Shown here one piece after another: positions 2,052 through 51,607 of a DNA stretch of 64,000 nt. The position numbers and the translations under genes were made by a program. The stretch comes from Patescibacteria group bacterium (GTDB lineage Bacteria > Patescibacteriota > Minisyncoccia > Phycocordibacterales > JAKAEA01). The notes beneath the pieces are model-generated. The model saw only the letters and a list, made by a program, of their open reading frames with translations, made no database searches and had not been told where the DNA came from. How positions within the stretch are numbered: position 1 is the first letter of the stretch; each line of letters opens with the position of its first letter. Where the stretch lies: assembly GCA_040387855.1 (NCBI GenBank), contig JAZKCY010000001.1, forward strand, positions 253,857 to 317,856, given 5' to 3'.

Positions 2052-2690
2052 ATGAAAATAACCAAATATGGCCACTGCTGTTTATTACTTGAAATAGAAG
2101 GAACACGAATACTTACTGATCCAGGCATATTTTCAACAACACAAAATGAAATTAAAGATATAGATGTGGTTGTTATTACTCATGATCATCAAGATCACTA
2201 CCATGTGGATTCTGTAAAAAAGATCATTGCCAATAATCCGGAAGTAAAAATTATTACAACAAGTTTTATGGCAGGGCTACTTGATAAAGAAAATATCAAG
2301 AATTATGAAATAGTAGATGAAGGGCAGAGCACAATCCAAAAAAATATTAAAATAGAAGCATATGGAACAAAGCATGCACAAATGCATTCTTCAATTCCTC
2401 AAACTTCAAATACAGGCTACTTTTTTGCAGATACGTTGTTTTATCCAGGAGATGCGTTTACAGATCCGAAGCGGCATATAGATATACTTGCACTTCCAGT
2501 AGCGGGACCATGGATGAAAATATCTGAAGCTATTGATTATGCTTTAGCACTTAAGCCTACAAAAGCTTTTGCTGTACATGATGCCGTAATGACTCGACCA
2601 GAACTAGCATCAAATTGGCCCAACAGAGTATTACCTCCAAATGGAATTGAATTCTTGGTACTTGAAATTGGCAAAGAATATGATTTCTAA
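2052..2690 (+). CDS. MBL-fold metallo-hydrolase
   Basis: HxHxDH motif (ITHDHQDH) and metallo-beta-lactamase-like layout. Confidence 0.7.
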   Translation: MKITKYGHCCLLLEIEGTRILTDPGIFSTTQNEIKDIDVVVITHDHQDHYHVDSVKKIIANNPEVKIITTSFMAGLLDKENIKNYEIVDEGQSTIQKNIKIEAYGTKHAQMHSSIPQTSNTGYFFADTLFYPGDAFTDPKRHIDILALPVAGPWMKISEAIDYALALKPTKAFAVHDAVMTRPELASNWPNRVLPPNGIEFLVLEIGKEYDF

Positions 2691-2958
2691 CAAAAAAGAA
2701 ATTCTCAAAGAACTCAAGACTATCCCTGGAGTTGGAAAAAGTATTGCTGAAGATTTATATGATCTTGGATATGTTTCTGTTGCTGATCTTAAAGATAGAG
2801 AGCCCATCATTATGTATGAACGGCTTTGTATAAAAGCAGGGAAGCATTTGGATAGATGTCTTTTGTATACATTTAAATGCGCTGTATATTATGCCTCTCA
2901 CAAAAAACATGATCCTGAAAAATTGAAGTGGTGGTATTGGAAAGATAAAGTGAAATAA
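2680..2958 (+). CDS. Cdd1-like helix-hairpin-helix protein
   Basis: IPGVGKSIAEDLYDLGY HhH motif and CAVYYASHKK block resemble Cdd1/pathogenicity-locus family; overlaps stop of upstream gene by 11 nt. Confidence 0.4.
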   Translation: MISNKKEILKELKTIPGVGKSIAEDLYDLGYVSVADLKDREPIIMYERLCIKAGKHLDRCLLYTFKCAVYYASHKKHDPEKLKWWYWKDKVK

Positions 2959-2981
2959 AAAACACCATTTGCGCAATGGTG
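2954..2981 (-). terminator. rho-independent terminator for small GC-rich ORF
   Basis: Hairpin CACCATTGCGCAAATGGTG followed by T-run on minus strand. Confidence 0.45.
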
Positions 2982-3021
2982 TGTGCAGTGTTCCTGCTCT
3001 AGAGAATCGCAGAGCCAAGCG

Positions 3022-3153
3022 TTAGGGCAGCTGGCATGCCCCGTGGAACTTGAGATATTCCTCTCGCTCAGCGGGGCTCATGTCTTCTGCTTTTCCTGGC
3101 TTGGGCTCGTCGTCTTCCTTCGGGAGTTTGACTTGGTCATCGCTCTTCGCCAT
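3022..3153 (-). CDS. 43-aa highly charged small protein (GC-rich micro-island)
   Basis: ATG preceded by GGAGGA SD at -5; hairpin terminator downstream; not in ORF track (<60 aa); translation MAKSDDQVKLPKEDDEPKPGKAEDMSPAEREEYLKFHGACQLP. Confidence 0.3.
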   Translation of the reverse strand: MAKSDDQVKLPKEDDEPKPGKAEDMSPAEREEYLKFHGACQLP

Positions 3154-3281
3154 GAAATCCTCCGTGCGCTAGAACTTTGAGACATGCCCATGTTTTCGAA
3201 CTGGGCTATTAATAACTCTACAACTATAAAATATCATGTCAAGTGGTATGAAATTTCTTACTTCATCGTCTTTTAATAGTA

Positions 3282-23793: not shown

Positions 23794-25740
23794 ATGAAAA
23801 TTTCTTATAATTGGCTTCAAACATATTTCAAAGATCCGCTACCTAGCCCAACAGAATTGGGTGATCTTCTCACATTCCATGTGTTTGAAATAGAAAGTAT
23901 CGATGAAGTAGGGAATGACACTATACTTGATGTGAAAGTACTTCCAGACCGAGCTCACTATGCGCTTTCACACAAAGGTGTAGCATATGAAATTGCTGCT
24001 ATTACAAACACTCCTGTCCATGAAAAGCCACTCGCTATAAAAAGAGAAAGTATAAAAGACTCACAAGAACTTATTGTAAATATTTATGATGAGCGATGTA
24101 TTCGAGATTCAAAAGTAGTACTTAAAAATATTACCGTAGAAACTTCACCTGAGTGGCTCAAAGAACGGCTCACAGCTATTGGCCAGCGATCTATTAGCAA
24201 TATTGTTGATGCAACAAACTATGTAATGTTTGATCGAGGTCAGCCACTGCATGCATTTGATTTTGATAAGCTTACAAAGAAAGATGGGAAAGCAGCGATT
24301 GGACTTAAGAAGGCAAACGCAGGTGACAAAATAACCACATTAGGTGGCAAAGAATATACGCTTGATGCAGATACTCTTGTATTTACTGATGAATATAATA
24401 ACGATGCACTTTTAGATATCGCTGGTATTAAAGGAGGAACATTGGCTGAAGTAGATGCGAATACAAAAAATATTGTAGTGCTGTCTGCAAATTTTGATGC
24501 ATCATATATACGCAAAACTTCTACAAAATATGGTATTAGAACTGATGCTTCAAAGCGATCAGAAAATAATATTTCTCCAGAATTAACTATGGATGGGTTG
24601 CTTCAGGTCGTTCAGCTTATTACGGATATTTCAAAAACAGCGCCAACAATAGAGGGGATTGTGGATTATTATCCTAAAGTTATTACTCAGCCTAAAGTAG
24701 TGATTTCTACTGACTATATTGTGAAGATGCTGGGAGTTAATATCTCTGAACCAGAAATTACAACTATCTTGCAGAGATTGCAGATTTCTTATCTTCACAA
24801 AGAAGGTGTGTTTGAAATTATGCCGCCACTGTGGCGACGAGATCTTGTAATTGCACAAGATGTTGTGGAAGAAGTTGGACGAATTTACGGATATAAAAAG
24901 CTGCCATCAACCCAGCTTCCTGAAACTAGTTTTAAGCCAGCGGTAAATAAACTCTTTTATTACTCAAATAAGATTAGAACTATATTAACTGAAGCAGGAT
25001 TCTCTGAAGTTTATACCTATGCATTGCAAAATAAAGGGGAAGTGGAGATTCTTAATCCATTAGCATCAGATAAAAATTACTTAAGAAAAGATTTAGTGAC
25101 TGGTATTTCTCAGTCACTAGAATTAAACGTGAGAAACGCAGATCTTCTTGGGCTTGATCAAATTAAGATATTTGAAATTGGTAAGGCATTTGCTAAAGAT
25201 GCTGAATCTACCAAGTTTGCATTGGGAGTAAAAAATGCAAAGAAGATGAAAGTAAAAGAAGGACAGGCTATTAAAGATATTCTTCAGAAAATCGGAGAGG
25301 CATTAGGCACTACACTTGATCTAAAGATTGCAGATACTGATACAGTATTTGAGCTCGATTTCGATGCTCTTATAGAACAACTTCCGCAACCTACTGCATA
25401 CGAACCATATATTCGAAGTGAAGAAGTAACTACTTATAAGAAATTCTCAGCATATCCATTTGCAGTGCGAGATATTGCGGTATTTACTCCAGAGGGAACA
25501 TCTAAAGAAACAGTGCGATCTGTTATTGAAAAATATGCAGGGGATATAGTACTTACAGAAAAAATAAGACTCTTTGATGAATTTACAAAAACATTAGAAG
25601 ATGGTTCTAAGAAAATTTCATTTGGATTTCGAATGGTGTTTCAATCATATGAGCGAACACTTACTGAAGAAGAAATAAATGCGGTTATGAAATCTATAAC
25701 TGATGATATGAATATGCGGGAAGGTTGGCAGGTGAGATAA
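23794..25740 (+). CDS. pheT: phenylalanine--tRNA ligase beta subunit (short, 648 aa)
   Basis: Immediately downstream of pheS; B3/B4 and C-terminal anticodon-binding-like layout. Confidence 0.75.
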   Translation: MKISYNWLQTYFKDPLPSPTELGDLLTFHVFEIESIDEVGNDTILDVKVLPDRAHYALSHKGVAYEIAAITNTPVHEKPLAIKRESIKDSQELIVNIYDERCIRDSKVVLKNITVETSPEWLKERLTAIGQRSISNIVDATNYVMFDRGQPLHAFDFDKLTKKDGKAAIGLKKANAGDKITTLGGKEYTLDADTLVFTDEYNNDALLDIAGIKGGTLAEVDANTKNIVVLSANFDASYIRKTSTKYGIRTDASKRSENNISPELTMDGLLQVVQLITDISKTAPTIEGIVDYYPKVITQPKVVISTDYIVKMLGVNISEPEITTILQRLQISYLHKEGVFEIMPPLWRRDLVIAQDVVEEVGRIYGYKKLPSTQLPETSFKPAVNKLFYYSNKIRTILTEAGFSEVYTYALQNKGEVEILNPLASDKNYLRKDLVTGISQSLELNVRNADLLGLDQIKIFEIGKAFAKDAESTKFALGVKNAKKMKVKEGQAIKDILQKIGEALGTTLDLKIADTDTVFELDFDALIEQLPQPTAYEPYIRSEEVTTYKKFSAYPFAVRDIAVFTPEGTSKETVRSVIEKYAGDIVLTEKIRLFDEFTKTLEDGSKKISFGFRMVFQSYERTLTEEEINAVMKSITDDMNMREGWQVR

Positions 25741-25766
25741 AAATCTAAAAATAAAATAAACGTTTA

Positions 25767-25795
25767 GCCCGGCTGCGTGTGGTACGCAGCCGGGC
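25767..25795 (+). terminator. GC-rich palindrome H1 (putative pheT terminator / REP-like element)
   Basis: GCCCGGCTGCGT-GTGGT-ACGCAGCCGGGC perfect 12-bp stem, weak T-run. Confidence 0.45.
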
Positions 25796-26150
25796 TTTCG
25801 ATTGGCGTCAGTGATGTCGACGCCGATGTTTCTTCTTGGGCCTGATCTTCCCCCTGTTTTTCCAGTGCTTGTTGCACAGGATGTTTGTGGTGCACGTGCA
25901 ACGTTTACTTCGCGTGATACGCTCGAACGGTTGGTACAAAGGGAGAGCAGCGTGCTCCCACCTCATCGGGGAAAGGTTTCGGCATGCGAAGACCTTTTTG
26001 ACCCGATTGGACCTACCGACCGGTAAGAAATTCTGTGCCAATCATTGTCTCCGAGAGAAGTCCTGGCTATTCCAATAGCCGTTCCTTCTGCATTCTTCCA
26101 TACTATAAAAAAATAATCAACAAAATATGTAAATGAAATCCAGAGGTGAG

Positions 26151-26182
26151 GAAGCCCGACTCGCGTGGTGCGGTCGGGCTTC
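26151..26182. repeat. GC-rich palindrome H2, related to H1
   Basis: GAAGCCCGAC-TCGCGTGGTGCG-GTCGGGCTTC; shares GCCCG..GCGTGGT.CGC..CGGGC core with H1. Confidence 0.4.
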
Positions 26183-26215
26183 TGGGAAACGAAGAACGTG
26201 AACGGTCGCGTAAGT

Positions 26216-26491
26216 CTACGCGAGCGTGAGCATGCCGATCTTCGGCACTCGAATGCGCGGCCGCATCTCGTTGTTCGCGTGGTGCGTTGGCGAGTAGTAG
26301 GCGCAGACGGGCGTCGGGACCGTGGGGCAGATCTCACTGTCGACGATCCGGCGGTCGATCTCGTCGATTGGGATGTCGACCGTCAGGCGGTGGTCGGCGA
26401 TCGCCCGGTCGAGCCGCTTTTGCTCGTCGGGGTAACCGAACTGGGACATTGCCGTCGGGATCTTCGGGTGACGGGGAGCGTGACGAATCAT
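26216..26491 (-). CDS. 91-aa acidic hypothetical protein with very high GC3 (foreign-derived)
   Basis: ATG with GAGG SD; third-codon positions almost all G/C, unlike any native gene in the window. Confidence 0.4.
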   Translation of the reverse strand: MIRHAPRHPKIPTAMSQFGYPDEQKRLDRAIADHRLTVDIPIDEIDRRIVDSEICPTVPTPVCAYYSPTHHANNEMRPRIRVPKIGMLTLA

Positions 26492-26649
26492 GAGAACCTC
26501 GAGATGAAACAGAAACCGTTCCTGGATACCAATCCATTGGCACCAGCTTCATGTATTATAGCATTTTGAGCATAAAAGTCAAGTTGGAAAAGGTGGATAT
26601 GGCGGCCCAGGCTAGCCGTATAAAATAGGTATGCTATGATGTACCCCGT

Positions 26650-27210
26650 ATGATTACTATTGGTCTTACGGGCACTATTGGCGCAGGCAAGGGAACGATT
26701 GTCGAGTATTTAAAGACCCAAGGTTTTACACACTATCCCGCTCGGGATTTTTTAATAAGAGAAGTTGTAAAAAGAGGACTCGAACCTATTCGAGAAAATA
26801 TTACTGTAGTGGCAAATGATCTCCGAAAGATCCATTCTCCTGATTATATAATCTCTGAACTTTCAAAAGAGCGAGCAACAAATCCTGGTAATGCAATTAT
26901 TGAATCTATTAGAAATTTAGGGGAGATAGATTATCTTAGAAAGACTATTCCCAATTTTTATTTGTTTGCTGTTGATGCAGATTTGAAACTTCGGTATGAA
27001 CGAATCCTAGAACGGGGATTGAGTACTGATCACATTTCATTTGAGCAGTTTGTGATAGACGAAAATAAAGAGATGGATTCTAAGGAACTCTGGAAACAAA
27101 ATATTCGAGCTTGTATTTCACAGGCAGATTTTGTATTCGAAAATAATGGGACTATTGAAGAACTCTCAGTGAAAGTGGAGGAAGTGCTTAAAAATTTGAC
27201 TAATAAGTAA
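26650..27210 (+). CDS. coaE: P-loop nucleotide kinase, dephospho-CoA kinase-like
   Basis: IGLTGTIGAGKGT Walker A at N-terminus and VDADLKLRYERILERGLS pattern like CoaE; low-GC native composition. Confidence 0.45.
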   Translation: MITIGLTGTIGAGKGTIVEYLKTQGFTHYPARDFLIREVVKRGLEPIRENITVVANDLRKIHSPDYIISELSKERATNPGNAIIESIRNLGEIDYLRKTIPNFYLFAVDADLKLRYERILERGLSTDHISFEQFVIDENKEMDSKELWKQNIRACISQADFVFENNGTIEELSVKVEEVLKNLTNK

Positions 27211-27553
27211 ATCCTCTTAAACTAACCTGAGAACTGGGGGCAGTCCTAACCCGAGGTCCACATGGCAGAATTTGGAGATGAATGGTCTGTGTGCTCGTGT
27301 TCGTGTCACGACCCAAATGGCGGGCCGCCGCGCGCTGACCACTGCATTCCGTGTTGTACTCATTGCCCGTGGTGTGCTCAGAACATCACGGGCAACCTCG
27401 ATGCACACATTGCTGGTGTTCATCCCACACACGTGGGGCAACCCTTTCCTTTCGTCAGTCCCTTAGCGGGGCTTTCCGACCAACCACTGGTCGGGTAGTC
27501 AGCAGGGGATTTTTTTATTACAAAATTTATATAAAAAAAGCCGTTCGCGGGTG

Positions 27554-27967
27554 CTACTTGGCTGGTGTTTTTTCGAAACTTTTTGCAAGGTAAAGTGTGG
27601 TATTGTAGGCAACTTTGAATTGAACATACCACACTTGTCCTACACTCCCGGTGCTATCATCCCGACCTCTCGGATTGAACCACACCTGCCGCACAACATA
27701 TGTGGCATGCTCTTCAGTGAGAGTGATATCGCCGATCTCGGGGGGAATGGGTGTTACAACCGGGCGGACTACATCATCCACCTTGAATGGCGGTTGCAAC
27801 CCAAGGAGCCGAGCGTGTAAGGCTCCGCTTAGCCAGTTCACCATCTTGCGAGTTGCGCGTAACCCGGGCTCTTCACCAAAGGAAGTGGCTCCGGTTCGCT
27901 CTGCAGCACGTACAAGCTCCTGCACAAGCTCGACGTTATCCATCGTGTACGGATCTCTTTTTGACAT
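27554..27967 (-). CDS. 137-aa hypothetical protein in GC-rich micro-island
   Basis: ATG preceded by AAGGAG SD at -7; no family recognised. Confidence 0.4.
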   Translation of the reverse strand: MSKRDPYTMDNVELVQELVRAAERTGATSFGEEPGLRATRKMVNWLSGALHARLLGLQPPFKVDDVVRPVVTPIPPEIGDITLTEEHATYVVRQVWFNPRGRDDSTGSVGQVWYVQFKVAYNTTLYLAKSFEKTPAK

Positions 27968-28062
27968 GCGGTTACTCCTTTTCCATACATTATAGTAGTC
28001 AAAATTGGGTTTGTTGCAAGCTCTAAAATTTGCTATAATAGAGTATCTAAAAATTTACAAAA

Positions 28063-30162
28063 ATGGCTAAATCAGACGAGAAGAAAAAGAAAGAAGGGAG
28101 TTACGGCGCGGAAGATATTCAAGTCCTCGAGGGTCTGGAACCGGTGCGAAAGCGACCGGGTATGTACATTGGTACAACTGGACCCGATGGTCTTCACCAT
28201 CTTATTTGGGAAATCTTCGATAACTCTCGTGACGAAGCCATGGGCGGTCATTGTAATGATATTGAAGTAGCCATTTTGCCTGGTGAGTTTATTCGTGTTG
28301 TCGACAACGGCCGAGGTATTCCCGTAGACAAACATTCAAAAACAAAAGTATCTGCTCTTGAAACTATTATGACCGTGCTTCATGCCGGAGGTAAATTCGG
28401 AGGTGAAGGATACAAAGTATCTGGAGGTCTTCACGGAGTGGGAGCATCGGTAGTAAACGCGCTTTCAAATCACACTCAAGTACGAGTACATCGCGATGGT
28501 GGAGAGCATGTTCAAGAATATGCTAAAGGGAAAATTCTCGCTCCAGTAAAAAAGGTTGGAGCTTCAAAGCTCAACGGAACTATCGTAAAATTTCAACCTG
28601 ACGAAACTATTTTTCAAGAAGTAAAATTTGATTTTCAGCGAGTTGTAAATCATCTTCGACAACAGGCTTACTTGGTTAAGGGCCTAAGAATTACTGTTAT
28701 TGATGCACGAGGTTATGAAGGTAAGATACGTGATGAGGAAGTAGCATATCTCCGTGAATTGGCTCTTGAAGTGCCATCACAGTCGTTCTACTTTGAAGGA
28801 GGACTTATGTCATTGGTGAAGTTCCAAAACACACTCTTCAAACCAGTACATAAAAATATTTTCTACATTGAAAAAAACACAACTGAATATGAAACAGTAG
28901 AAGTATCTCTCCAGTATGTTGACGATATGAGTTCACGTATCCTTCCTTTTGCAAACAATATTTACAACTCAGAAGGAGGAACTCATGTTACAGGATTTAA
29001 GACTGCGCTTACACGTATGCTTAATACCTATGGCCGAAAGAATAATCTCATTAAAGAATCAGAAGAAAACTTTACAGGTGAAGACGTACTTGAAGGTCTC
29101 ACTGCCGTTGTGTCTGTAAAGATTCGAGAAATTCAATTCGAAGGACAAACAAAAGCAAAGCTTGGAACTGTGGAAGCTCGAGGAATGGTTGAATCTGTGT
29201 TTAGTGAGGCATTTGAATTCTTCCTTGAAGAAAATCCAGACGATGCACGAGCTATCATTCAGAAAGTTATTCTTGCTCTTCGAGCACGAAAAGCTGCGAA
29301 GGCTGCAAAGGATTCTATTTTGCGAAAGGGAGCTCTTGAAGGATTTGGTCTTCCAGGAAAACTTAAGGATTGCCAAAGCAAAGATGCTACAGAATCAGAA
29401 CTCTTCATTGTGGAGGGAGACTCAGCGGGTGGTACAGCTACACAAGGACGAGATCGAAAGACTCAGGCTATCTTGCCGTTGAAAGGAAAAGTGCTCAACG
29501 TGGAACGAGCTCGCCTCGATAAGATTTTGGCATTTGCCGAAATCAAATACTTGGTTATTGCGCTGGGAACTGCGATTGGTGATACTTTCGATATTTCACG
29601 ACTACGTTATCACAAGATTATTATTGCAACGGATGCGGACGTCGACGGTGCTCACATTCGAACATTGTTGCTAACCCTTTTCTTCCGATACTTCCGACCA
29701 CTTATTGATGCGGGCAATATCTACATCGCACAACCACCACTCTTTAAGATTAAACGAGGAAAGCAGATTGAGTATGCATACTCACTCGAAGAACGAGATC
29801 ATATTATTAAAAATGTGTTTGGATACAAGGGAGAAGTAGAAGAAATTATCCAGACAGAACACAACACTCCATCAGAAGAAGTTTTTGTTACCGAAGCCGT
29901 ATCTGATGAACAGCTCGATGAAGAACGAGAAGTGAAAAAGAAAGGAAAGCCTGATGTACAACGATACAAGGGTCTTGGAGAAATGAACGCCGAAGAGTTG
30001 TGGGAAACAACAATGGATCCAACTCGACGAGTGCTTAAGCGAGTAGAAGTGGGAGATGCTACTGAAGCTGATAAAGTCTTCGATATCTTGATGGGTACAG
30101 ATGTGCCATCACGAAAGAGTTTCATCCAGTCGAATGCGCAGAAAGCGAATATCGATATTTAA
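28063..30162 (+). CDS. gyrB: DNA gyrase subunit B
   Basis: GHKL ATPase N-domain, TOPRIM (EGDSAGG) and C-terminal tail; 699 aa. Confidence 0.9.
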   Translation: MAKSDEKKKKEGSYGAEDIQVLEGLEPVRKRPGMYIGTTGPDGLHHLIWEIFDNSRDEAMGGHCNDIEVAILPGEFIRVVDNGRGIPVDKHSKTKVSALETIMTVLHAGGKFGGEGYKVSGGLHGVGASVVNALSNHTQVRVHRDGGEHVQEYAKGKILAPVKKVGASKLNGTIVKFQPDETIFQEVKFDFQRVVNHLRQQAYLVKGLRITVIDARGYEGKIRDEEVAYLRELALEVPSQSFYFEGGLMSLVKFQNTLFKPVHKNIFYIEKNTTEYETVEVSLQYVDDMSSRILPFANNIYNSEGGTHVTGFKTALTRMLNTYGRKNNLIKESEENFTGEDVLEGLTAVVSVKIREIQFEGQTKAKLGTVEARGMVESVFSEAFEFFLEENPDDARAIIQKVILALRARKAAKAAKDSILRKGALEGFGLPGKLKDCQSKDATESELFIVEGDSAGGTATQGRDRKTQAILPLKGKVLNVERARLDKILAFAEIKYLVIALGTAIGDTFDISRLRYHKIIIATDADVDGAHIRTLLLTLFFRYFRPLIDAGNIYIAQPPLFKIKRGKQIEYAYSLEERDHIIKNVFGYKGEVEEIIQTEHNTPSEEVFVTEAVSDEQLDEEREVKKKGKPDVQRYKGLGEMNAEELWETTMDPTRRVLKRVEVGDATEADKVFDILMGTDVPSRKSFIQSNAQKANIDI

Positions 30163-51286: not shown

Positions 51287-51370
51287 ATATGTATATAGAC
51301 GAACTATACCAATAATTATCAACATTGCAAAATTAAGCAATCTGTGCTGTAATGTGGACTGGAGGTGCTT

Positions 51371-51607
51371 ATGCGATCACGTATCAATAGGATTCTCCAG
51401 AGGTCGCGCGACCCACAGTCGTACCTCTGGCAGATCCGAGATTCCTGGCCGGTTCCAGCTCTACTTAATACGGCCTTGGTGGCACTTGCCTGTGTTGTGC
51501 CAGCAGCTGGGTTCCTCATTCTTGCAGGTCTGGGCGTTGCTGCCAACCTGCTGTACCTATTCTGCCTCTACATGGGGCCGACACAGCCTCCCCTCAAATC
51601 TGAGTAG
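51371..51607 (+). CDS. small two-TM membrane protein in GC-rich micro-island
   Basis: GGAGG SD 5 nt before ATG, hydrophobic core, strong terminator directly after stop. Confidence 0.35.
   Translation: MRSRINRILQRSRDPQSYLWQIRDSWPVPALLNTALVALACVVPAAGFLILAGLGVAANLLYLFCLYMGPTQPPLKSE

Follow-up and report, generated by a model that had tools for sequence, protein, structure and literature searches.

What accounts for a block of GC-rich DNA next to pheT in the chromosome of an otherwise AT-rich bacterium, and does it encode anything? Patescibacteria genomes are tiny, streamlined, and AT-rich, and to our knowledge little is known about how these bacteria acquire genes. The window, by which we mean the whole 64,000-nt stretch that was analysed, comes from a Patescibacteria MAG of 38% GC, and 49–65% GC is reached across 25,766–26,582. 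The initial annotation had called 25,800–26,500 GC-rich, and this is borne out by 200-nt windows, which give GC contents of 0.47–0.65 between 25,700 and 26,500, compared with 0.30–0.40 in the flanking genes and about 0.38 in the remainder of the 64 kb. The setting is the housekeeping stretch pheST-kinase-gyrB of the chromosome, with no phage genes close by. The interval 3′ of pheT carries two tandem minus-strand units, A and B, on the strand opposite to pheT. We read these, with moderate confidence, as accessory genes for orphan microproteins, foreign-like in composition and located in a recombination hotspot.

Unit B contains an orphan ORF of 91 codons (ORF91, 26216–26491, minus strand), the product of which has a net charge of +2. 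Its promoter (26555–26582, minus strand) consists of TTGACT, 16 nt, and TGcTATAAT, with 11 of 12 consensus positions and an extended −10 element. It is followed by a 63-nt leader (26492–26554, minus strand), which forms two small hairpins of unexceptional stability (z −0.65). A GAGG Shine–Dalgarno (SD) sequence had been reported for this ORF, and it is found at 26497–26500 on the minus strand, 5 nt 5′ of the ATG at 26491. The start context of ORF91, GAGGTTCTCATG, is similar to GGAGTTCTCTCATG of the related genomes described below, and GGTTCTCATG is common to the window and to relatives of the YRPI family. A terminator-type hairpin, H2, lies 33 nt past the stop codon of ORF91.

The base composition of ORF91 is very different from that of the native genes. 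Its GC content is 0.645, with GC1/2/3 of 0.62/0.45/0.87, so the GC3 put above 80% by inspection in the initial annotation is confirmed by calculation. The 48 window ORFs of at least 150 aa, taken as the native reference set, have a GC3 of 0.259 ± 0.047 (maximum 0.45), which places ORF91 at z = 13, and its GC difference between codon phases was equalled in 0 of 20,000 shuffles. The comparison of codon usage with native genes, which had been proposed as a check, gave a CAI-like score of 0.27 for ORF91 vs 0.69 ± 0.04 for the native genes. The arginine codons of ORF91 are CGG and CGC, whereas native genes favour CGA; its codon usage is unlike that of the host and matches a genome of roughly 65–70% GC. 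With its promoter, SD, and hairpin correctly placed and its strong three-base periodicity, ORF91 looks like a gene.

Where, then, did ORF91 come from? A search of 5.8 billion clustered proteins returned the self-match and no homologue, and phmmer against 1.84 billion representatives also gave no homologue. The one other match, to the 989-aa protein P0002, which has internal repeats, covers 40 residues with an E value of 4e-4 and was judged to be spurious. There was no match beyond self in PDB sequences, in phage and plasmid sequences (tblastn and blastn), or in IMG/VR, and neither window ORF has a match in Pfam, NCBIfam, PHROGs, or PADLOC. The neighbouring ORF p137 has no homologue among 5.8 billion proteins either. 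An AlphaFold model of ORF91 alone was uninformative (pLDDT 49), and a search of the literature gave nothing relevant. Thus, the description of ORF91 as Actinobacteria-like is borne out for composition only (GC3 of 0.87 vs 0.26), the protein, plasmid, phage, and IMG/VR sets having yielded no homologue in a donor lineage. The foreign donor is unproven because no homologue was found, the very outcome that the initial annotation had named as counting against it.

Two related GC-rich palindromes had been said to bracket the block. Both exist. H1 (25766–25796) has arms at 25766–25778 and 25784–25796, forming 13 perfect pairs with a 5-nt loop; its folding energy is −28.5 kcal/mol for each strand, with z-scores of −5.0 and −6.7. 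H2 (26151–26182) reads GAAGCCCGAC-T-CGC GTGGT GCG-GTCGGGCTTC, with 10+3 pairs and one bulged T, and folds with −25.6 and −24.7 kcal/mol. Both are far stabler than shuffled sequences (z −4.6 to −6.7). They are also related to each other: 28 of 32 aligned positions are identical (z = 5.5, equalled in 1 of 1000 shuffles), although this evidence amounts to about half of the apparent score because matching left arms force matching right arms. On the minus strand, both have AAGCCCG(G/A)C and an ACCAC loop. The sequence AGCCCGNC is confined to H1 and H2 in the 64 kb, where at least four matches occur in 7 of 100 shuffles. A dispersed repeat of the REP or MITE type was rejected on copy number, as there are two copies within 64 kb.

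However, the palindromes do not bracket an insert; each ends one unit. H1 starts 26 nt after the pheT stop codon and lies 12 nt past the stop codon of the unit A ORF, so from its position between convergent stops, it is a shared convergent hairpin of the terminator type. Both hairpins resemble Rho-independent terminators in being GC-rich, perfect or near-perfect stem-loops located 12–33 nt past stop codons, with H1 between convergent genes. Unlike such terminators, they have no canonical U-tract 3′ of the stem on the minus strand, and neither is listed by a consensus terminator scan. For H1, this is due to its tails, which are TTTCGATT / UUUCGAUU on the plus strand and the A-rich AAACGUUU on the minus strand; the minus-strand tail of H2 is CUCACCUC. 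The orthologous hairpins of three relatives (L161, L162, and L081) do have U-tracts.

Two further minus-strand ORFs, at 25963–26337 (124 aa) and 25808–26041 (77 aa, with a TTG start), are present as the initial annotation described them. The latter is the best coding candidate of the lower block and forms the ORF of unit A. Its 77 codons specify a peptide with a net charge of +19, its GC3 of 0.67 has a z-score of 8.6 relative to native ORFs, and its phase test was equalled in 263 of 20,000 shuffles. A GGAG SD at 26049–26052 (minus strand) lies 7 nt 5′ of the TTG and is preceded by a leader stem-loop at 26056–26089 (minus strand; GAAG..GGCUAUU GGA AAUAGCC..CUUC), which has a terminator-like score on the plus strand. 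A degenerate promoter at 26102–26133 (minus strand), with TTTACA, a 20-nt spacer, and TATAGT, occupies the position at which the relative L165 has TTGACA-17-TATAAT. Since good sigma-70 promoters have a spacing shorter than 20 nt, unit A may instead depend on read-through past H2. The antisense ORF at 25802–26026 (plus strand), which is in phase with the 77-codon ORF, is also open, as expected because the sense frame is GC3-rich.

In an AT-rich genome, a GC-rich island classically points to an RNA gene. Could the lower block (25,797–26,095), or even both blocks, specify structured noncoding RNAs, with incidental ORFs? As in RNA-gene islands, there is a local GC peak between promoter and terminator, and the relatives' leaders are more conserved than their ORFs. 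The three open overlapping ORFs make the coding strand of the lower block ambiguous, and the unit A transcript folds with z −6.0, its centroid being the MFE structure. However, this z-score comes from the two perfect terminal hairpins; without them, folding is plain, the interior having z-scores of only −2.1 (minus strand) and −1.5 (plus strand). Rfam provides no family match even at E values up to 10: the Rfam 15 covariance models gave only two chance eukaryotic lncRNA/miRNA matches in 25,600–28,100 (E 0.45–2.5), and in the whole window two tRNAs and nothing else. RNAalifold found no consensus structure for eight leaders, a null result that follows from the use of a MAFFT alignment, which is not structural. 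Against RNA genes, too, are the three-base GC periodicity, seen in both units and very strong in B, the correctly spaced SD sites, and the dN/dS of the relatives' ORFs given below. We therefore consider noncoding RNAs improbable.

The overlapping ORFs had been interpreted as possible frameshifted remnants of a longer foreign gene. A wreck of one high-GC, actinobacterial donor gene spanning 25,800–26,500 would explain why several ORFs overlap in the segment, why the composition is foreign-like, and why ORF91 and the 77-codon ORF share one minus-strand frame, both with raised GC3. However, there are three in-frame stops between them, together with H2, a hairpin of −25 kcal/mol, and a spacer that is AT-rich and includes promoter-like hexamers and an SD, and the GC3 of the shared frame falls to 0.37–0.40 across 26,100–26,190. 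The 124-aa ORF that links the two blocks (25963–26337, minus strand) is not a gene. Its GC1/2/3 is 0.48/0.64/0.48, with GC2 as the richest phase, which identifies it as ORF91's shadow frame; it continues through H2 and the AT-rich spacer. Furthermore, H2 and its junction are kept in L165, whose two units have their own promoters. No continuous homology or coding signal extends across the frame breaks in 25,800–26,500, and a homologue of whatever length is found in none of the libraries searched. A single wrecked gene is thus highly improbable and already close to refuted.

Is this arrangement found in other genomes? The gene order GT-pheS-pheT-[unit(s)]-kinase-gyrB is common to the window and its relatives, and the variable slot is bounded by pheT on one side and, downstream, by the kinase or gyrB gene on the other. 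The same design is present in this slot in ten Paceibacteria relatives (L001, L003, L081, L161, L162, L165, L166, L167, L170, and L080), all with a promoter of the unit B type at the matching place; L165 has two tandem units, as in the window. Four other relatives, namely L163, L164, L172, and the one represented by the P0009 contigs, have nothing in the slot. Beyond the two ORFs of the window, the relatives have 11 slot ORFs with GC3 of 0.52–0.96, and all 13 fall in this range (0.52–0.96), compared with 0.23–0.37 for pheT in the same loci. The design is seen in NCBI MAGs, in JGI contigs of 0.27–1 Mb, and in Logan contigs, and its presence in three independent assembly sources rules out chimeric assembly. 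In L001 and L166, the slot ORF has evolved with dN/dS of 0.16, which suggests that it is translated in the relatives.

The ORFs and leaders of the window do not align with those of any syntenic counterpart (shuffle tests not significant), so it is linked to the slot family only by its position, its design, and a homologous terminator. For the last, H2 with the following 20 nt was compared with hairpin 2 and the junction of L165, giving z 7.8, with 0 of 1000 shuffles reaching the score. Similarly, the window agrees with the YRPI family in position, strand, design, and terminator, but not in leader or peptide sequence. An nhmmer profile of the YRPI leaders (L001, L166, L003, L170, and L167) found only the promoter in unit B, with E 0.35, and nothing in unit A, and the 77-codon ORF was not ranked when an HMM of the family's N-terminal peptide was applied to all window ORFs.

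Four apparent resemblances were rejected. The similarity of the 77-codon ORF, and of another frame in the lower block, to the L165 unit-1 peptide was eyeballed and is no better than that of shuffles. The motif [FY]xP[IV]xR, common with the YRPI family and also seen by eye, is supported neither by shuffles nor by HMM ranking. ORF91 and the L165 unit-2 ORF are of similar size, with MSQ at residue 15, but the BLASTP E value is 0.2 and shuffles are not significant. A bL34-like identity, suggested by MRRxYRP N-termini in relatives, was dismissed because no peptide matches Pfam Ribosomal_L34 at E ≤10.

There is direct evidence of recombination at this locus. L161 has its promoter, leader, and kinase gene in common with L001 and L166, while its ORF is different and its pheT is only 60–67% identical. 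This shared framework with a different ORF places a recombination junction at the start of the ORF.

Is the GC-richness imported, or is it maintained in place? The slot might be a native, long-resident small-ORF locus, in which GC is kept high by selection on the mRNA (stability, structure, or avoidance of AU-directed RNases) or by GC-biased gene conversion at a hotspot, with GC3 high since third positions are free to respond. The age of the family fits this: the slot and its promoter/leader framework are common to genomes with about 50–67% pheT identity, yet the family remains GC-rich, which would not be expected after simple import and subsequent decay. In addition, 10 of the 13 ORFs converge at 62–67% GC although their peptides are unrelated, and the leaders, with conserved two-hairpin shapes, are also raised in GC (0.45–0.55). 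Between L001 and L166, dS is 0.48 for the small ORF, lower than the 1.1 for pheT, and T-to-C gains are seen in conserved codons of L166; in the conserved codons of the YRPI family, such gains are about as frequent as C-to-T losses, by hand parsimony on a tiny sample. The recombination just described also counts in its favour. However, whole-mRNA folding is ordinary for unit B (z −1.6), and likewise for L001 and L161, and GC2 is raised too, a feature of proteins shaped by GC pressure on the whole genome. Furthermore, the GC edges at promoter and terminator are sharp, and gene-conversion tracts would lack such edges. A locus-specific RNA constraint also fails to explain the GC-rich accessory genes in neighbouring slots. 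Maintenance in place seems to us rather unlikely.

A second possibility, which we also regard as doubtful, is that, in a clade of Paceibacteria, there is a fixed "expression slot" beside pheT that swaps unrelated GC-rich microprotein ORFs, or that GC-richness is itself selected in the mRNAs. Such a slot would supply a strong promoter, a structured leader able to hide the ribosome-binding site, and a hairpin as terminator. The ORFs would be repeatedly exchanged by recombination at the conserved frame, giving tandem arrays without an integrase. If true, the expression slot or the selected GC-richness would be a previously undescribed mode of acquisition, display, and turnover of tiny genes in ultra-small symbiotic bacteria.

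The second leader hairpin of the relatives pairs with the SD, and their leader with its small-ORF family is a candidate for a new regulatory element. Could the units be type I toxin-like modules, in which leader structure restrains the translation of small toxic peptides? Like type I toxin–antitoxin loci, they consist of very small ORFs located in intergenic slots that are conserved within the core genome, with structured 5′ UTRs, tandem copies, presence/absence variation, rapid turnover, and no detectable homology. However, their peptides are hydrophilic and often strongly basic, and none has a hydrophobic helix. A search inside the units gave no antisense promoter, antisense RNA gene, or antitoxin RNA, PADLOC and Pfam gave no match, and folding of the window's own leaders leaves the SD essentially unpaired. 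We consider toxin modules to be improbable.

Integron cassettes and CALINs are likewise tandem arrays in which short ORFs, most of them orphans, alternate with related imperfect palindromes, and H2 has one extrahelical base, as attC sites do. However, the palindromes are 31–32 nt long, as opposed to 57–141 nt for attC, they lack the flanking R″/R′ core sites (RYYYAAC / GTTRRRY), and, unlike integron cassettes, each window unit has its own promoter. The attC/integron reading was rejected for three reasons: the size of the palindromes, the core sites, and the copy number (two copies in 64 kb).

Phage morons are a closer parallel. These are additional genes that have been inserted between conserved ones and are autonomous, each having a promoter and a terminator of its own. 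Similarly, each unit is complete, running from a sigma-70 promoter through an SD and a short ORF to a hairpin; it lies between two conserved genes, is present or absent among relatives, and differs in composition from its flanks. The differences are that the units are in a Patescibacteria chromosome and not in a prophage, that they have no PHROG or IMG/VR match, and that their composition is shifted towards GC.

For accessory microprotein genes, the reading that we favour, the following mechanism is proposed. The near-consensus sigma-70 extended −10 promoter of unit B would drive an mRNA of about 400 nt, comprising the 63-nt leader, GAGG, the 91-codon ORF, and an end at H2. Unit A, directly after unit B, would be transcribed from its weakened promoter or by read-through past H2, which has no U-tract; its RNA would contain the 5′ stem-loop, GGAG with TTG, and the 77-codon ORF for a very basic peptide, and would end at H1, which may also close the convergent pheT transcript. 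The microprotein genes of the window are probably highly expressed. In related Paceibacteria, the slot is either empty or occupied by other GC-rich small ORFs of the same plan. The accessory genes would be traded between such genomes, in the manner of phage morons, when the conserved flanks recombine. Both ORFs have the codon usage of a genome of roughly 65% GC, and their ultimate source may be a GC-richer gene pool. What is the function of the two products? We can only guess that they are small regulatory or conflict-related proteins; the charge of the unit A peptide may be strong enough for nucleic-acid binding.

The locus thus presents well-formed orphan microprotein genes, with codon usage opposite to that of the host, in a slot whose content changes from relative to relative, or is missing, and that bears direct signs of recombination in the same interval. 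If the ORFs were imported, they mark a GC-rich donor pool, possibly the hosts of these episymbionts or mobile elements. If the GC-richness is maintained in place, an unusual selection or biased conversion acts on a transcribed region of 100–400 bp.

The segment should be annotated as two small genes and not as one pseudogene. ORF91 has two alternative starts, the ATG at 26491 (91 codons) and the ATG at 26449 (77 codons), and the NCBI annotation gives the 77-aa version from 26449, as a hypothetical protein. The accessory genes in neighbouring slots are likewise raised in GC3, with values of 0.47–0.71.

The gene order glycosyltransferase (minus strand), pheS, pheT (23794-25740), AAA_18-type kinase (26650-27210) and gyrB (from 28063) is kept in relatives, which are labelled Parcubacteria or Paceibacterota. 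The source MAG has about 38% GC. Between 25,700 and 26,500, in the interval after pheT, GC rises to 0.49-0.65, compared with 0.30-0.40 in the flanks; thus, the GC-rich segment at 25800-26500 in the initial annotation is real, and all of the features described there (the GC rise, ORFs and palindromes) are present.

Read along the minus strand, the segment begins with a near-perfect promoter match, TTGACT-16-TGcTATAAT (26582-26555), a 63-nt leader, and, as annotated, a GAGG Shine-Dalgarno (SD) sequence, which is followed 5 nt later by the ATG (26491) of a 91-codon ORF, ORF91 (26216-26491). The very stable hairpin H2 (26151-26182, -25.6 kcal/mol) lies 33 nt after its stop. An AT-rich spacer with TTTACA-20 nt-TATAGT (26133-26102) directly follows H2, and then come a 5' stem-loop (26089-26056) and a 77-codon ORF (25808-26041), which starts with a TTG 7 nt after its SD, GGAG, and whose peptide has a net charge of +19. 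The hairpin H1 (25766-25796, -28.5 kcal/mol, very stable) is 12 nt after that stop and starts 26 nt past the stop of pheT on the opposite strand. Because of this order of promoters, leaders, SDs, ORFs and hairpins, the segment is two units, B and A, each with its own closing hairpin. The two palindromes are indeed related, with 28 of 32 aligned positions identical and ACCAC as the minus-strand loop in both, although the z of 5.5 overstates the evidence, since palindromes count the likeness of their arms twice.

ORF91 has GC1/2/3 of 0.62/0.45/0.87. The high GC3 noticed earlier is 13 standard deviations (z = 13) above the native value of 0.259 ± 0.047 for the 48 ORFs of at least 150 aa in the window, and the codon-phase contrast was matched by none of 20,000 shuffles. 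The CAI-like score is 0.27 (native, 0.69 ± 0.04), as ORF91 uses codons that native genes avoid. Its single-sequence AlphaFold model is unconfident (pLDDT 49). For the unit A ORF, GC3 is 0.67 (z = 8.6 against native ORFs), and 263 of 20,000 shuffles reached its phase contrast. The lower block has three open frames, and only the 77-codon minus frame has a GC-rich third position and an open in-phase antisense partner; it is therefore the best coding candidate there, on weaker evidence than ORF91.

The overlapping minus-strand ORFs had been read as frameshifted remnants of a longer foreign gene. The 124-aa ORF (25963-26337) joins the units solely because its frame stays open across H2 and the spacer, and its GC phases (0.48/0.64/0.48, position 2 richest) are the pattern of an ORF91 shadow; we reject it as a gene. 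One frameshifted gene over the segment fails on both the anatomy and the comparative evidence.

ORF91, whose 77-aa form NCBI annotates as 'hypothetical protein V4519_01650' on a contig of 981,549 bp, matched only itself in 5.8 billion proteins and in an exhaustive phmmer search of 1.84 billion representatives; a single further hit, to a repeat protein, was judged spurious. No match was found for ORF91 or the unit A ORF in Pfam, NCBIfam, PHROGs or PADLOC, for ORF91 in PDB sequences, phage and plasmid tblastn or IMG/VR, for the whole segment in phage and plasmid blastn, or for 25,600-28,100 in Rfam, even at E up to 10. 'Actinobacteria-like' thus remains a statement on composition only, because no donor was found: of the earlier interpretation, the observations and the foreign-like, high-GC-type codon usage stand.

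pheT loci (L numbers) were fetched from GTDB genomes, JGI metagenomes, Logan, and NCBI and ENA assemblies; the highest pheT identity to the window is ≤61%. Ten genomes have the same design opposite and immediately after pheT: L001:7905-8250, L166:3405-3745, L161:1985-2295, L003:7905-8185, L170:4445-4800, L167:3395-3865, L162:4935-5262, L081:5915-6210 and L165:4958-5318 (all minus strand), and L080. They share (AC)TTGAC(A/T)-N17-TGnTATAAT, an 80-97-nt leader, a short ORF with an SD, and a hairpin, rich in GC, that adjoins the pheT stop. Like the window, L165 (a JGI contig of 1 Mb) holds a tandem pair of units. Independent assemblies show the same design, excluding chimeric assembly. The unit is absent in four relatives, where the gap from pheT to the next gene is 6-70 bp.

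In the closest pair, L001/L166 (pheT 84% identical), a 46-aa peptide is conserved with dN/dS of 0.16, from which we take these ORFs to be translated genes; dS is 0.48 (pheT, 1.1). An N-terminal YRPI motif is common to L001, L166, L003 and L170, and LA(I/V)L.P to L001 and L170. L161 (Logan SRR28401819) is near L001/L166 in promoter and leader (~85%) and kinase (~90%, both by eye), whereas its ORF body is wholly different and its pheT only 60-67% identical. This locus is a mosaic in which recombination has left a junction at the start codon of the small ORF. Comparison of the window with L165 shows that H2 and the following junction are conserved (46 nt, z 7.8, 0/1000 shuffles), but ORFs and leaders cannot be aligned; a profile built on promoters and leaders of the relatives found only the unit B promoter in the window, and a peptide HMM did not pick out the 77-codon ORF. 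It is therefore position, design and the homologous terminator that place the window units in this slot, and not the sequence of their ORFs. The relatives' leaders have a 5' stem-loop and a second hairpin pairing with the SD (z -2 to -3.4), whereas the window leaders are shorter, of ordinary stability, and leave the SD free.

Could the units be RNA only? We reject this on the three-base periodicity, the SD spacing, the dN/dS of the relatives' ORF, the zero Rfam matches and the folding, which is ordinary when the terminal hairpins are left out. We conclude that the window ORFs are accessory orphan microprotein genes, predicted autonomous transcription units, in a variable, recombining slot. Small accessory gene units in variable intergenic hotspots are familiar, and this is a new, orphan instance of one. 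As autonomous accessory units the window genes resemble phage morons, but their setting on this CPR chromosome is a housekeeping region.

Every gene in the pheT slot is GC-rich, a trait that is clade-wide: all 13 slot ORFs (25-93 codons) have GC of 0.53-0.67 and GC3 of 0.52-0.96, against pheT GC3 of 0.23-0.37 in the same loci. The ORFs may have been imported from a GC-richer pool. They use codons as a high-GC genome typically does, GC2 is raised too, the slot varies in presence and is mosaic, and neighbouring accessory genes have GC3 of 0.47-0.71, although the searches found no donor. Those neighbours include two window orphans (GC3 0.51-0.56; native, 0.26) and variable genes near the kinase at L170:5373-5804(-) (0.71), L165:6443-7165(+) (0.61), L163:3855-4295(+) (0.56) and L162:5937-6494(-) (0.47), where core genes have 0.23-0.37. 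Alternatively, GC-richness may be maintained in place: the framework has a long history, ORFs that are unrelated to each other converge at ~65% GC, the small ORF has low dS, and conserved codons show a few T-to-C gains.

The two window orphans occupy a second GC-rich island (27217-27970) between kinase and gyrB. One is a Cys/His-rich 78-aa ORF (27262-27498, plus strand; CSCSCHD...CIPCCTHCPWC) that has a promoter-like site, the SD GAGG and a hairpin with T-run; the other is a 137-aa ORF (27554-27967, minus strand; SD AAGGAG) matching only itself in 5.8 billion proteins. Accessory genes GC-richer than the core, as in this clade, reverse the usual trend. L165 also carries a 23S_rRNA_IVP-family (S23 ribosomal intervening-sequence protein) gene between pheS and pheT (2607-2963, plus strand), another sign that the neighbourhood takes insertions.

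The relatives' ~85-nt two-hairpin leader, conserved promoter and small basic ORF are a candidate for a new Paceibacteria family of leader and small ORF, which matches nothing in Rfam or Pfam. One more unit on this plan lies at an unrelated site in a further Parcubacteria MAG (L040:9167-9750, plus strand), with promoter TTGACA-17-TGTATAAT, a 95-nt leader, SD AAAGGAG, a 136-codon ORF (GC3 0.89, no Pfam match) and a terminator hairpin. Native window ORFs prefer CGA to AGA for Arg (57% of 838 Arg codons are CGA), an unusual preference where the genome is AT-rich. Further local GC peaks (0.45-0.53) in the window are at 1200-2000, including tRNA-Ser (1477-1564), at 2983-3180, with an acidic 43-aa ORF with SD (3022-3153, minus strand), and at 51319-51607, with a 78-aa ORF (51371-51607, plus strand) that has an SD and a hydrophobic stretch.
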